Assembly (NCBI RefSeq): GCF_003334355.1
Contig: NZ_QOWP01000023.1
Origin: Escherichia coli
Lineage (GTDB): Bacteria > Pseudomonadota > Gammaproteobacteria > Enterobacterales > Enterobacteriaceae
Direction: 5' to 3' (one strand)
DNA length: 64,000 bases
How positions within the stretch are numbered: position 1 is the first letter of the stretch; each line of letters begins with the position of its first letter. A program made the position numbers and the translations under genes. The notes beneath the pieces are model-generated. The model ran no database searches. It saw only the letters and a program-made list of their open reading frames with translations, and was not told where the DNA came from. Of this stretch, positions 12,736 through 19,009 are shown one piece after another.

Positions 12736-15198
12736 TCAGACTCCTAACTTCCATGAGAGGGTACGTAGCAGATCGGCAAAGACACCGGCAGCTGTAACGT
12801 CATTGCCCGCACCATATCCGCGCAGCACCAACGGCAGCGGCTGATAATAGTGGCTATAAAAGGCCAGGGCGTTTTCGCCATTTTTCACTTTGAACAGCGG
12901 ATCATTACCATCCACTTCGGCAATCTTCACGCGGCAGGCACCATCTTCATCAATATTGCCAACATAGCGCAAAACTTTTCCTTCATCACGGGCCTTCGCC
13001 ACGCGCGCGGCAAAGAGATCGTCGAGCTGTGACAGATTCGCCATAAAAGCGGCAACATCACCCTCAGCGTTAAACTCTGCGGGCAGCACAGGTTCAATTT
13101 CAATATCCGCCAGCTCCAGTTCACGTCCCGTTTCACGAGCGAGAATCAATAGCTTACGCGCTACATCCATACCAGAAAGATCATCTCGCGGATCCGGTTC
13201 GGTATAACCCATTTCCCGCGCCAGAGTAGTCGCCTCGGAGAAACTCATGCCTTCGTCTAACTTGCCGAAGATATAAGAAAGCGAACCTGAAAGAATGCCG
13301 GAGAACTTCATCAATTCATCACCAGCATTGAGCAGATTTTGCAGGTTCTCAATAACCGGTAATCCAGCCCCAACGTTGGTGTCATAGAGGAATTTACGCC
13401 GCGATTTTTCCGCCGCATGACGCAACAGATGGTAGTAATCCATCGACGAGGTGTTGGCCTTTTTGTTCGGCGTGACAACGTGGAAACCTTCGCGCAAGAA
13501 GTCGGCATATTGATCCGCCACTGCCTGGCTGGAAGTGCAGTCAACAATGACCGGGTTCAGCAGATGATATTCTTTCACGAGGCGAATTAAGCGCCCGAGA
13601 TTAAACGGCTCTTTGGCTTGCGCCAGTTCTTCCTGCCAGTTTTCCAGATTTAGGCCATGCACATTGGTGAGCAGTGCCTTCGAGTTGGCAACACCGCAGA
13701 CACGTAAGTCGATATGTTTATTCTTCAGCCAGCTTTGTTGACGCTTCAGTTGCTCCAGCAGCGCACCGCCAACGCCACCGACGCCAATCACAAACACTTC
13801 GATAACCTGATCGGTATTGAACAGCATCTGATGAGTAACGCGCACGCCAGTGGTCGCATCATCGTTATTTACCACGACAGAGATTGAGCGTTCAGAAGAT
13901 CCCTGAGCAATCGCGACAATGTTGATATTGGCGCGGGCCAGCGCGGCAAAGAATTTCGCCGAGATCCCACGCAAGGTGCGCATACCATCACCTACCACCG
14001 AGATAATGGCCAGCCGTTCCGTCACCGCCAGCGGCTCCAGTAAGCCTTCTTTCAGTTCCAGGTAGAACTCTTCCTGCATTGCCCGTTCAGCCCGCACACA
14101 GTCGCTTTGCGGAACGCAGAAACTGATACTGTATTCGGAAGATGATTGCGTAATCAGCACCACGGAAATACGGGCGCGTGACATCGCGGCAAAGACGCGC
14201 GCCGCCATGCCGACCATTCCTTTCATCCCCGGGCCGGAAACGCTGAACATTGCCATGTTATTCAGATTGGAAATGCCCTTGACCGGTAATTCGTCTTCAT
14301 CACGACTGGCACCAATGAGCGTACCTGGTGCTTGAGGATTTCCGGTATTTTTAATCAGGCAAGGGATCTGGAACTGGGCGATGGGGGTAATGGTGCGGGG
14401 GTGAAGAACTTTAGCGCCGAAGTAGGAAAGCTCCATCGCTTCCTGGTAGGACATCGACTTCAACAACCTCGCATCGGGCACCTGACGCGGGTCGCAGGTA
14501 TAGACCCCGTCAACGTCCGTCCAAATCTCGCAACAATCGGCGCGTAAACAGGCAGCCAGCACCGCCGCGGAGTAGTCGGAACCGTTGCGTCCAAGTACCA
14601 CCAGTTCGCCTTTTTCATTACCGGCGGTGAAGCCTGCCATCAGCACCATGTGATCAGCCGGAATACGACTTGCCGCAATACGGCGGGTGGACTCAGCAAT
14701 ATCGACGGTAGATTCGAGGTAATGCCCCACTGCCAGTAGTTTTTCGACCGGATCGATAACGGTAACGTTGTGACCACGCGCTTCTAACACGCCGGCCATA
14801 ATGGCGATCGACATTTTCTCGCCACGGCAAATCAGCGCAGCGTTAATGCTATCCGGGCACTGCCCTAACAAACTAATGCCATGCAGGACATGTTTTATTT
14901 GGGCAAATTCCTGGTCGACGAAAGTTTTCAATTGCGCCAGCGGGAATCCCGGCTGGGCGGCGGCGAGTCCCGTCAAAAGTTCGGCAAAAATACGTTCGGC
15001 ATCGCTGATATTGGGTAAAGCATCCTGGCCGCTAATGGTTTTTTCAATCATCGCCACCAGGTGGTTGGTGATTTTGGCGGGGGCAGAGAGGACGGTGGCC
15101 ACCTGCCCCTGCCTGGCATTGCTTTCCAGAATATCGGCAACCCGCAGAAAACGTTCTGCATTTGCCACTGATGTACCGCCGAACTTCAACACTCGCAT
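12736..15198 (-). CDS. thrA: Bifunctional aspartokinase I / homoserine dehydrogenase I
   Basis: 820-aa ORF starting [30 protein letters not shown]. Confidence 0.99.
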
Positions 15199-15224
15199 GG
15201 TTGTTACCTCGTTACCTTTGGTCG

Positions 15225-15261
15225 AAAAAAAAAGCCCGCACTGTCAGGTGCGGGCTTTTTT
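15225..15261 (-). terminator. thr operon attenuator (leader terminator)
   Basis: Minus strand gcccgcacctgacagtgcgggc hairpin followed by a run of 9 T; located between thrL and thrA. Confidence 0.8.
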
Positions 15262-15279
15262 CTGTGTTTCCTGTACGCG

Positions 15280-15348
<69 letters not shown>

Positions 15349-15558
15349 TGTTGTGTACTCTGTAATTTTTATCTGTCTGTGCGCTATGCCTATATTGGTT
15401 AAAGTATTTAGTGACCTAAGTCAATAAAATTTTAATTTACTCACGGCAGGTAACCAGTTCAGAAGCTGCTGTCAGAGACTCTTTTTTTAATCCACACAGA
15501 GACATATTGCCCATTGCAGTCAGAATGAAAAGCTGAAAAATACTTACTAAGGCGTTTT

Positions 15559-16245
15559 TTATTTGGTGATATTTTTTTCAATATCATGCAGCAAACGGTG
15601 CAACATTGCCGTGTCTCGTTGCTCTAAAAGCCCCAGGCGTTGCTGTAACCAGTCGACCAGTTTTATGTCATCTGCCACTGCCAGAGTCGTCAGCAATGCC
15701 ATGACTCGTTCGCGTAAAGCTTGCAGTTGATGTTGGTCTGCCGTTGTGTCACTTTTCGTCGGTTGTTGTATTAATGTTGCTAATTGATAGCAATAGACCA
15801 TCACTGCCTGCCCCAGATTGAGCGAAGGATAATCCGCCACCATCGGCACACCAGTAAGAACGTCAGCCAACGCTAACTCTTCGTTAGTCAACCCGGAATC
15901 TTCGCGACCAAACACCAGCGCGGCATGGCTCATCCATGAAGATTTTTCCTCTAACAGCGGCACCAGTTCAACTGGCGTGGCGTAGTAATGATATTTCGCC
16001 CGACTGCGCGCAGTGGTGGCGACAGTGAAATCGACATCGTGTAACGATTCAACCAGTGTCGGGAAAACTTTAATATTATCAATAATATCACCAGATCCAT
16101 GTGCGACCCAGCGAGTGGCTGGCTCCAGATGTGCCTGACTATCGACAATCCGCAGTTCGCTAAACCCCATCGTTTTCATTGCCCGCGCCGCTGCCCCAAT
16201 ATTTTCTGCTCTGGCGGGTGCGACCAGAATAATCGTTATACGCAT
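15559..16245 (-). CDS. lasT: SpoU-family tRNA/rRNA methyltransferase LasT (YjtD)
   Basis: Start trimmed to MRITIILVAPARAENIGAAARAMKTMGF (228 aa); SpoU/TrmH fold. Confidence 0.85.
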   Translation of the reverse strand: MRITIILVAPARAENIGAAARAMKTMGFSELRIVDSQAHLEPATRWVAHGSGDIIDNIKVFPTLVESLHDVDFTVATTARSRAKYHYYATPVELVPLLEEKSSWMSHAALVFGREDSGLTNEELALADVLTGVPMVADYPSLNLGQAVMVYCYQLATLIQQPTKSDTTADQHQLQALRERVMALLTTLAVADDIKLVDWLQQRLGLLEQRDTAMLHRLLHDIEKNITK

Positions 16246-16589
16246 ATTGCCACTCTTCTTGACCAAATGACCGCGAACAGGGTGATCACTGTCAACTTAT
16301 TACGCGGTGCGAATTTACAAATCCTTAACGTAAGTCGCAGAAAAAGCCCTTTACTTAGCTTAAAAAAGGCTAAACTATTTCCTGACTGTACTAACGGTTG
16401 AATTGTTAAAAAATGCTACATATCCTTCTGTTTACTTAGGATAATTTTATAAAAAATAAATCTCGACAATTGGATTCACCACGTTTATTAGTTGTATGAT
16501 GCAACTAGTTGGATTATTAAAATAATGTGACGAAAGCTAGCATTTAGATACGATGATTTCATCAAACTGTTAACGTGCTACAATTGAAC

Positions 16590-16603
16590 TTGATATATGT
16601 CAA
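16590..16603. promoter_or_regulatory. FNR-like site in arcA upstream region
   Basis: TTGATatatGTCAA, near match to the FNR consensus TTGAT-N4-ATCAA, about 280 bp upstream of the arcA start. Confidence 0.45.
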
Positions 16604-16880
16604 CGAAGCGTAGTTTTATTGGGTGTCCGGCCCCTCTTAGCCTGTTATGTTGCTGTTAAAATGGTTAGGATGACAGCCGTTTTTGACACTGTCGGGTCCT
16701 GAGGGAAAGTACCCACGACCAAGCTAATGATGTTGTTGACGTTGATGGAAAGTGCATCAAGAACGCAATTACGTACTTTAGTCATGTTACGCCGATCATG
16801 TTAATTTGCAGCATGCATCAGGCAGGTCAGGGACTTTTGTACTTCCTGTTTCGATTTAGTTGGCAATTTAGGTAGCAAAC

Positions 16881-17597
16881 ATGCAGACCCCGCACATTCT
16901 TATCGTTGAAGACGAGTTGGTAACACGCAACACGTTGAAAAGTATTTTCGAAGCGGAAGGCTATGATGTTTTCGAAGCGACAGATGGCGCGGAAATGCAT
17001 CAGATCCTCTCTGAATATGACATCAACCTGGTGATCATGGATATCAATCTGCCGGGTAAGAACGGTCTTCTGTTAGCGCGTGAACTGCGCGAGCAGGCGA
17101 ATGTTGCGTTGATGTTCCTGACTGGCCGTGACAACGAAGTCGATAAAATTCTCGGCCTCGAAATCGGTGCAGATGACTACATCACCAAACCGTTCAACCC
17201 GCGTGAACTGACGATTCGTGCACGCAACCTGCTGTCCCGTACCATGAATCTGGGTACTGTCAGCGAAGAACGTCGTAGCGTTGAAAGCTACAAGTTCAAT
17301 GGTTGGGAACTGGACATCAACAGCCGTTCGTTGATCGGCCCTGATGGCGAGCAGTACAAGCTGCCGCGCAGCGAGTTCCGCGCCATGCTTCACTTCTGTG
17401 AAAACCCAGGCAAAATTCAGTCCCGTGCTGAACTGCTGAAGAAAATGACCGGCCGTGAGCTGAAACCACACGACCGTACTGTAGACGTGACGATCCGCCG
17501 TATTCGTAAACATTTCGAATCTACGCCGGATACGCCGGAAATCATCGCCACCATCCACGGTGAAGGTTATCGCTTCTGCGGTGATCTGGAAGATTAA
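16881..17597 (+). CDS. arcA: Aerobic respiration control response regulator ArcA
   Basis: 238-aa ORF starting [30 protein letters not shown]; OmpR-family receiver plus winged helix. Confidence 0.98.
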
Positions 17598-17613
17598 TCG
17601 GCGTTACCACCGT

Positions 17614-17652
17614 CAAAAAAAATGGCGCTTTTTAGCGCCGTTTTTATTTTTC
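17614..17652. terminator. Bidirectional terminator between convergent arcA and creD
   Basis: A-run, ggcgc-loop-gcgcc hairpin, T-run. Confidence 0.7.
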
Positions 17653-17656
17653 AACC

Positions 17657-19009
17657 TTATTTCCAGATACGTAATTGATCGTCCATTGTAACTTCTTTAC
17701 TGGCTTTCATTTTCGGCAGTGAAAACGCATACCAGTCGATATTACGAGTCACAAACATCATGCCGGCCAGCGCCACCACCAGCACACTGGTTCCCAACAA
17801 CAGCGCGCTATCGGCAGAGTTGAGCAGTCCCCACATCACACCATCCAGCAACAACAGCGCGAGGGTAAACAACATGCTGTTGCGCCAGCCTTTCAATACC
17901 GCCTGCAAATAAATACCGTTCATTAACGCCCCAATCAGACTGGCGATTATCCATGCCACGGTAAAACCGATATGTTCAGAAAGCGCCAGCAAGAGCAAAT
18001 AAAACATCACCAATGAAAGCCCCACCAGCAAATATTGCATTGGGTGTAAACGTTGCGCGGTGAGCGTTTCAAAAACAAAGAACGCCATAAAAGTCAGTGC
18101 AATCAGCAGAATGGCGTACTTAGTCGCCCGGTCCGTTAATTGGTATTGATCGGCTGGCGTCGTCACTGCGACGCTAAACGCGGGGAAGTTTTCCCAGCCG
18201 GTATCATTGCCTGAAGCAAAACGCTCACCGAGATTATTAGCAAACCAGCTGCTTTGCCATTGCGCCTGAAAACCTGACTCGCTAACTTCCCGTTTGGCTG
18301 GCAAAAAATCACCTAAAAAACTGGGATGCGGCCAGTTGCTGGTTAAGGTCATTTCGCTATTACGCCCGGCAGGCACCACAGAAAGATCGCCGGTACCGCT
18401 TAAATTCAGGGCCATATTCAGCTTCAGGTTCTGCTTCCGCCAGCCCCCTTCGGGTAAAGGGATATGCACGCCCTGCCCGCCTTGCTCTAACCCGGTGCCG
18501 GGTTCAATGGTCAGCGCCGTTCCGTTAACTTCAGGCGCTTTCACCACACCAATACCACGCGCATCCCCGACGCTAATCACAATAAAGGGCTTGCCTAAGA
18601 TGATATTTGGCGCGTTGAGCTCGCTAAGACGCGAAACATCGAAATCGGCTTTTAGCGTTAAATCACTGTGCCAGACCTGACCGGTATAAATCCCTATCTT
18701 GCGTTCTTCCACGTTCTGATTGCCATCAACCATCAATGACTCAGGTAACCAAAAATGGATAAAACTTCGTTTCCGCTCCACGGTTTTATCCTCTTCCTGC
18801 ACCGTATAAAGCTCGGTCACAGGAATAGCGATAAGCGGCCCAACGAGTTTTTGCGGCCCGCTGGTACTTTGGCGAATCGCATCTTCCACATCGCTACGGT
18901 AATCGGCACGTTCGACAATCACTTGCCGAATCAGCATTATCGGAATCAACAACAGCAATACTGCACCAAACAAGGTGGTCATTTTCCAGAACAGGGGGGA
19001 TTTCAACAT
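17657..19009 (-). CDS. creD: Inner membrane protein CreD
   Basis: 450-aa ORF; last gene of the creABCD cluster. Confidence 0.93.
   Translation of the reverse strand: MLKSPLFWKMTTLFGAVLLLLIPIMLIRQVIVERADYRSDVEDAIRQSTSGPQKLVGPLIAIPVTELYTVQEEDKTVERKRSFIHFWLPESLMVDGNQNVEERKIGIYTGQVWHSDLTLKADFDVSRLSELNAPNIILGKPFIVISVGDARGIGVVKAPEVNGTALTIEPGTGLEQGGQGVHIPLPEGGWRKQNLKLNMALNLSGTGDLSVVPAGRNSEMTLTSNWPHPSFLGDFLPAKREVSESGFQAQWQSSWFANNLGERFASGNDTGWENFPAFSVAVTTPADQYQLTDRATKYAILLIALTFMAFFVFETLTAQRLHPMQYLLVGLSLVMFYLLLLALSEHIGFTVAWIIASLIGALMNGIYLQAVLKGWRNSMLFTLALLLLDGVMWGLLNSADSALLLGTSVLVVALAGMMFVTRNIDWYAFSLPKMKASKEVTMDDQLRIWK

Follow-up and report, generated by a model that had tools for sequence, protein, structure and literature searches.

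The arcA upstream region of Escherichia coli: an FNR site, a conserved promoter module, and the antisense yjjY open reading frame

The yjtD-arcA intergenic region and its conservation

At the locus described here, the gene encoding ArcA, the response regulator of the ArcBA redox system and a global regulator of respiratory metabolism, stands divergently from yjtD (lasT), with a long intergenic region between the two start codons. The whole stretch of DNA that was analyzed (64 kb, hereafter the window) is part of an E. coli chromosome and runs in the orientation opposite to that of K-12. The two genes, as annotated in RefSeq, and the region between them are as follows.

15559-16245, minus strand: yjtD/lasT
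16246-16880, no strand assigned: yjtD(lasT)-arcA intergenic region, 635 bp, from the yjtD/lasT start codon (ending at 16245) to the arcA ATG (16881)
16881-17597, plus strand: arcA

The original prediction of a 635-bp, AT-rich noncoding region ahead of arcA holds at exactly these limits, with a GC content of 38.6%, against 51.9% for the window, and the region is shared divergently by arcA and yjtD/lasT. RefSeq places creD downstream of arcA and thrL and thrA beyond lasT. An Rfam scan of 15000 to 18000 (E ≤ 1) returned only the threonine operon leader (RF00506, 122 bits), at 15225 to 15344 on the minus strand, and no match in 16246 to 16880; this leader and thrL lie just past lasT, which means that the point where K-12 numbering conventionally begins falls within the window.

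The sequence from 16100 to 17000 is 100% identical to that of strain E2865 and is present in 5424 of 5426 complete E. coli genomes, about 14 of those 5424 lacking a contiguous match over the arcA upstream region. Relative to K-12, it carries five single-nucleotide polymorphisms (SNPs), at 16263, 16269, 16279, 16323, and 16402, all of them in the arcA-distal part of the intergenic region; the FNR module described below is free of SNPs, and the two strains do not differ anywhere between 16403 and 17000, a stretch that contains every element of the promoter module. Because no indels separate K-12 from the window over 16100 to 17000, coordinates are converted in a straightforward manner (K-12 U00096.3 = 4657187 - x and U00096.2 = 4655210 - x, x being the window position), and the conversion returns what we take to be the K-12 coordinates of the gene ends. 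Independent support for it comes from a published Reg-Seq footprint that falls exactly on the FNR half-sites.

Upstream regions of arcA were compared in 14 taxa (E. coli and 13 others, ranging from Escherichia to Vibrio), the loci having been retrieved by exact-protein look-ups; the set drew on Salmonella, Citrobacter, Klebsiella, three Enterobacter-like species, and Siccibacter, as well as on Yersinia, Serratia, Tatumella, Rosenbergiella, Photorhabdus, Plesiomonas, and two Vibrio species. Identity to E. coli among the other Enterobacteriaceae divides the intergenic region in two, as given here together with the values for both flanking genes.

16567-16880, no strand assigned: ultra-conserved arcA-proximal block, 314 bp, comprising promoter module, leader, and yjjY open reading frame (ORF); 89-98% identity (Citrobacter, Klebsiella, three Enterobacter-like species, Siccibacter, Salmonella)
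16246-16566: distal half of the intergenic region; 49-70% identity
arcA coding sequence: 85-91% identity (52-70% at 4-fold sites)
lasT coding sequence: 66-77% identity

Across the Enterobacteriaceae, the arcA-proximal 314 bp exceed the arcA coding sequence itself in identity. SNPs within E. coli avoid this block as well, with between 0 and 2 of them found among four divergent strains. The only variable island within the block is a GC-rich stretch at 16626 to 16640 (GGCCCCTCTTAG). As for the surroundings, creD or creA lies downstream of arcA in the Enterobacteriaceae, with arcB located elsewhere, and in Plesiomonas and Vibrio cholerae arcB is found directly downstream of arcA in convergent orientation. 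In Yersinia mollaretii, about 700 bp with neither a called gene nor lasT separate thrL from arcA, and the FNR module and a 46-codon yjjY-like ORF are kept.

FNR, the TGTTA repeat, and the arcA promoter

The elements in the upstream part of the conserved block are listed in order of position, numbered where appropriate from the published transcription start site (TSS) at 16679.

16576-16584, plus strand: extended -10-like element TGcTACAAT, a candidate additional arcA promoter with a putative start near 16591
16590-16603, no strand assigned: FNR box TTGATATATGTCAA, 291 bp before the arcA ATG
16615-16623, plus strand: repressor-type footprint attributed to CpxR (Reg-Seq, -64 to -56; CpxR by mass spectrometry)
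16643-16658, plus strand: direct repeat TGTTA-N6-TGTTA (TGTTATGTTGCTGTTA) with 11-bp spacing and an ArcA-box core, at -36 to -21, over the -35/spacer
16666-16671, plus strand: -10 hexamer TAGGAT of the FNR-dependent arcA promoter, ending 8 nucleotides before the published TSS

The FNR box departs from TTGAT-N4-ATCAA at a single position (9 of the 10 specified bases). Judged from sequence alone, it would not be significant, the window containing six one-mismatch matches against 2.4 expected; it is significant because it is conserved, a like site being present in all 14 taxa, 262 to 302 bp ahead of the arcA start codon. Myers 2013 predicted an FNR site, TTGACATATATCAA, at 4638607 (U00096.2; 14.83 bits, Table S6), which maps exactly onto the same 14 bp of the window, and reported FNR ChIP-chip/ChIP-seq peaks at 4638594 and 4638600 (U00096.2), 13 to 19 bp from the center of that site; in Reg-Seq (PMC7567609), FNR was recovered at arcA by DNA-affinity mass spectrometry. 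The FNR-like site that had been predicted upstream of arcA is thereby borne out, with ChIP peak, predicted site, and Reg-Seq footprint all coinciding with TTGATATATGTCAA, and the FNR occupancy on which that prediction had been made to hinge is a matter of published record. The site is genuine and already known, and an arcA control region containing it is, as such, ordinary. A chance occurrence in AT-rich DNA, a reading to which the match counts given above lend themselves, has practically no probability left and can be called refuted already: ChIP occupancy, the mutational footprint, and conservation in every taxon all stand against it, and a chance FNR-like match in 360 shuffled bp has a P value of about 0.006.

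The FNR-dependent arcA TSS at 16679 is given in the Reg-Seq supplement (PMC7567609) with reference to Compan & Touati 1994, which, as relayed by later literature, is the source for FNR activation of arcA. Around this TSS (4640508 in U00096.3), 160 bp were mutagenized in Reg-Seq, on a plasmid-borne fragment that differs from the chromosomal context with all its promoters, and an FNR activator region was delimited at -99 to -63, with a footprint only under low oxygen. The strongest signals of the anaerobic per-base footprint, at -88 to -86 and -79 to -77, are the TGA and TCA half-site cores of the box. Smaller peaks were found at -37 to -34 (16642-16645; positive, at the TGTTA repeat) and at -14 to -11, on the TA of TAGGAT, and it is because of the latter that we take this hexamer to be the -10 element. 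In addition, there was a negative signal at -65 to -63, at the CpxR-attributed region, and a small positive signal at -100 to -98, at the extended -10-like element. Another candidate -10 element, TGTTAAAAT (16654-16662), was rejected, since its T6 is not conserved and both footprint and published TSS favor TAGGAT. A generic promoter and terminator scan returned one minus-strand consensus match and zero terminators, with fewer matches than in shuffled sequences.

Activation by CRP and FNR proceeds from class II positions (-41.5) or from class I positions near -61.5, -71.5, -82.5, and -92.5. With its center at 16596.5, the FNR box lies at -82.5 from the TSS, an activating position, from which it appears to act as a class I site. 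All 14 taxa share the order of elements and their fixed spacing, with the FNR box followed by TGTTA-N6-TGTTA and this in turn by a -10 hexamer reading TAGGAT, TAGAAT, or TAACAT. In Vibrio, the distance from FNR box to promoter is about 11 bp shorter, which moves the box from about -82.5 to about -71.5, both of them class I positions, and keeps the helical face. That the module formed by FNR box, TGTTA repeat, and -10 element is so deeply conserved and keeps its helical phase is new here. A class II FNR promoter reading toward arcA (start near 16638) was considered and rejected, because its would-be -10, TCCGGC, lies in the island at 16626 to 16640, the block's one variable stretch.

Five promoters reportedly lie within about 530 nucleotides upstream of arcA, and anaerobic induction of the gene is said to be about fourfold and to depend on Fnr and partly on ArcA. 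The prediction that the region is an arcA control region with multiple promoters agrees with the Reg-Seq supplement, where the start used is described as "one of many." Under low oxygen, [4Fe-4S]-FNR would bind TTGATATATGTCAA and, from its class I position at -82.5, aid RNA polymerase at a weak promoter (-10 TAGGAT at 16666 to 16671, start at 16679), whose arcA transcript would begin with a leader of about 200 nucleotides; basal arcA expression would come from other, constitutive promoters in the region. Published results differ on the dependence of arcA expression on FNR: the anaerobic Reg-Seq footprint and Compan & Touati 1994, as cited by others, favor activation, and Myers 2013 reported no FNR-dependent change in glucose minimal medium.

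Other uses of the same FNR site deserve consideration. A start directed by the extended -10-like element would fall inside the FNR box, so that FNR might repress one arcA promoter as well. FNR would then serve as a promoter switch that, bound at about +6, shuts the TGcTACAAT promoter and activates the downstream one, leaving net arcA output little changed; this would reconcile strong FNR occupancy with the observation in Myers 2013 that, in glucose minimal medium, no FNR-dependent expression change was seen. The element lies directly 5' of the FNR box, coincides with the small positive Reg-Seq signal mentioned above, and is kept from E. coli to Vibrio (TGcTACAAT in all Enterobacterales examined and TGtTACATT in Vibrio). 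However, that signal is weak, the literature consulted contains no start near 16591, and the promoter was called by consensus matching only; on balance, we consider such a switch rather unlikely. The site might also serve the divergent yjtD/lasT and not arcA, by way of a leftward, class II-type promoter starting near 16557: Myers 2013 files both peak and site under lasT/yjtD, sigma-70 ChIP occupancy near 4638650 (window ~16560) is anaerobically 3.3-fold above its aerobic level, and a weak leftward -10 candidate, CAGTTT (16569-16564), would put FNR near -40. Yet the peak is among those without FNR-dependent expression change, yjtD itself included (Myers 2013, Table S9), the Reg-Seq reporter reads toward arcA and depends on the FNR box, and CAGTTT is not conserved in Siccibacter or Photorhabdus. 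Since, moreover, the box keeps its distance from arcA even in taxa without lasT as upstream neighbor (Yersinia, Plesiomonas, and Vibrio), the assignment to lasT is disfavored, and we hold it to be very unlikely. Activation of arcA from a class I position remains the preferred reading, and the anaerobic rise in sigma-70 occupancy counts in favor of the arcA FNR site as well.

The TGTTA repeat is the sole exact match to TGTTA-N6-TGTTA in the window (0.12 expected) and is invariant in 14 of 14 taxa, 46.5 or 45.5 bp from the FNR box and, in Vibrio, 36.5 bp from it. It may be a -35/spacer determinant or an autoregulatory site for phosphorylated ArcA (ArcA-P). The supplements of Park 2013 (PMC3798270), which cover one growth condition, list nothing for ArcA at the repeat (U00096.2 4638552-4638567), and the single ArcA peak and box that they place in the intergenic region lie 320 bp from it.

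16289-16331, minus strand: published ArcA-P box comprising three direct repeats, upstream of lasT (45-85 bp from its ATG; Park 2013 supplement)

In Park 2013, the corresponding ChIP-seq peak (4638845/52) and box (4638879-4638921; U00096.2) are labeled yjtD. The repeat cores of this box stand out as conserved islands in an alignment of eight genera, and the SNP at 16323 lies inside it, reading AAATCC in the window strain and AAATTC in K-12. Should ArcA indeed act at the TGTTA repeat, the arrangement would represent a module with FNR-to-ArcA feed-forward and positive feedback that is conserved from Vibrio to Escherichia.

The antisense yjjY frame and the arcA leader

The downstream part of the conserved block is occupied by the arcA leader and, on the opposite strand, by yjjY.

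16645-16785, minus strand: yjjY ORF, 46 codons (MTKVRNCVLDALSINVNNIISLVVGTFPQDPTVSKTAVILTILTAT), annotated in RefSeq; antisense to the arcA -35/-10 and leader
16679-16880, plus strand: arcA leader, about 202 nucleotides, from the published FNR-dependent TSS to the ATG
16870-16883, plus strand: arcA ribosome-binding region AGGTAGCAAAC plus ATG; anti-Shine-Dalgarno pairing of -3.7 kcal/mol

A yjjY ORF of about 46 amino acids had been anticipated in this region, and a search of the minus strand located it, identical to YjjY and matching the NCBIfam model YjjY (NF052365) over its full length with 96.5 bits (cut-off, 70). The ORF of 46 codons was thus found as expected, but the Shine-Dalgarno sequence expected with it is essentially absent (-1.7 kcal/mol against the anti-Shine-Dalgarno). 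The sole minus-strand sigma-70-like match would start transcription downstream of the yjjY ATG. Similarly, a conserved small ORF does exist where the original prediction had counted on one, although it is conserved as DNA and not as a protein.

The latter distinction rests on how the frame evolves. A genuine small-protein gene, with the conservation of 16645 to 16785 resulting partly from selection on YjjY, would agree with an ORF that is intact, and a protein that is 81 to 96% identical, across the Enterobacteriaceae; with the intact 46-codon counterpart in Yersinia, despite 19% nucleotide divergence; with the match to NF052365, an equivalog model; with a 6-bp insertion in Salmonella that is in frame; and with transcription of the antisense strand, a published double-stranded RNA cluster (4638370-4638791, window 16419-16840) showing both strands to be transcribed. 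Against it, the excess of third-position changes typical of the controls is absent: variable columns in eight genera are distributed 9:5:4 over the codon positions (arcA, 3:0:73; lasT, 33:16:113), and the 27 differences between E. coli and Yersinia are distributed 8:10:9, with 2 synonymous versus 16 nonsynonymous changed codons (dN/dS of about 1). Compared with a lasT-like third-position share of 70%, the yjjY counts have P values of about 4e-5 and 9e-5. Conservation outside the ORF equals that inside and runs past both ORF ends, the Shine-Dalgarno sequence is missing, and the ORF is lost in six groups that keep the promoter module (Serratia, Tatumella, Rosenbergiella, Photorhabdus, Plesiomonas, and Vibrio). 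Its survival under random substitution has a probability of 0.20 to 0.48, and a control for passive retention is provided by a second antisense ORF (16665-16760, minus strand; 30 amino acids from the ATG at 16757, MHFPSTSTTSLAWSW...), which overlaps yjjY in another frame and is open in the same taxa, including Yersinia. Finally, published phenotypes of yjjY insertions and scars were ascribed to altered arcA regulation. We therefore regard a protein-coding yjjY as unlikely, with the reservation that overlapping constraints could mask a coding signature. The likeliest source of its conservation is the arcA promoter and leader rather than a protein, and constraint on the control sequences of arcA, acting at the nucleotide level, would preserve the ORF incidentally; from these comparisons, we infer that yjjY is noncoding.

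The leader measures 196 to 226 nucleotides in 14 of 14 taxa; the TAGGTA of its ribosome-binding region is invariant in all of them, and leader modules at 16727 to 16790 and 16833 to 16880 are conserved as far as Yersinia and Serratia. No unusual fold stability was detected (z scores of 0.07 from 16668, 0.34 from 16591, and -0.51 on the antisense strand), and RNAalifold, applied to nine Enterobacterales leaders, yielded no covariation-supported structure, only a 6-pair invariant hairpin around the Shine-Dalgarno sequence and AUG. This hairpin (16871-16889; GGU/ACC and GCA/UGC), which shows no covariation, is predicted to pair the arcA Shine-Dalgarno sequence and AUG with codons 2 and 3. A perfect inverted repeat in the leader, TTGATG-N7-CATCAA at 16742 to 16760, is kept in the Enterobacteriaceae, Yersinia, and Serratia and gives the predicted folds their most stable local hairpin. 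Two plus-strand leader ORFs (16727-16804 and 16798-16875) were rejected as conserved coding sequences, since stop codons break them in Siccibacter and one of the Enterobacter-like species, a result that bears on a published Salmonella small ORF. In Erwinia, an interaction between ArcZ and the arcA leader has been proposed from prediction and reporter data.

Taken together, we are confident that the region is a composite arcA promoter and leader with a genuine FNR site, in which class I activation, ArcA at the repeat, and a noncoding yjjY are the interpretive parts. The narrower combination, in which yjjY is noncoding and passively open in the conserved block and the TGTTA repeat is an ancient ArcA-P autoregulatory site working with class I FNR, is put forward tentatively, as a possibility somewhat short of even.

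Insertions upstream of arcA and comparison with known systems

The base-level map also bears on mutations that arise at this locus, several of which lie in the following zone.

16405-16548, no strand assigned: poorly conserved distal zone receiving insertion sequence (IS) insertions; 49-70% identity between genera

In gut-evolved K-12 (U00096.2), IS1 was reported at 4638805, IS5 at 4638771 and 4638673, and an added TTAT at 4638684, corresponding to window positions 16405, 16439, 16537, and 16526, respectively, and arcA expression was raised anaerobically in lines with such insertions. A long-term evolution line was reported to carry IS186 at K-12 4640557 (window 16630), inside the variable island at 16626 to 16640. 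In the human fecal isolate IAL7255, an IS is present at about 16548, just upstream of the conserved block, with an integrase-core transposase gene reading toward arcA; it resembles the adaptive IS insertions of mouse-gut evolution. The arcA upstream region is thus a recurrent adaptive IS target, both in the mouse gut and in laboratory evolution, and a map of promoter, FNR site, and leader in window coordinates helps to interpret such mutations. Likewise, phenotypes assigned to "yjjY" are best taken as arcA regulatory effects. What is added here is this base-level map, the conservation and phasing of the module, and evidence against protein-coding evolution of yjjY; neither the map nor the yjjY evidence changes the current understanding of the arcA system.

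The closest known counterpart is the K-12 arcA promoter region (Compan & Touati 1994, PMID 8022271; arcA promoters in EcoCyc/RegulonDB; Reg-Seq, PMC7567609), which is the same locus with the same FNR box, TSS, and activator role, and from which the window differs by the five distal SNPs, one of them inside the published ArcA box. In mechanism, the arcA promoter resembles class I CRP- or FNR-dependent promoters, in which the activator binds upstream of a promoter whose -35 element is poor; the alignment of the arcA site at -82.5 in Enterobacterales and at about -71.5 in Vibrio, on the same helical face, fits this class, whereas most of the well-studied FNR-activated promoters are class II (-41.5). 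The two TGTTA repeats, 11 bp apart at -36 to -21, recall the Pho-box-like layout of the OmpR/PhoB family of response regulators, where 11-bp direct repeats take the place of the -35 element, and the repeat matches the ArcA-P box of Park 2013 (PMC3798270) in core and spacing; unlike the Park 2013 box at 16289 to 16331, it has no reported ArcA ChIP peak. With regard to yjjY, the NCBIfam family NF052365 is defined by sequence similarity only, and the likeness of the ORF to this family, although above the curated cut-off, is attributed here to what is probably noncoding constraint.
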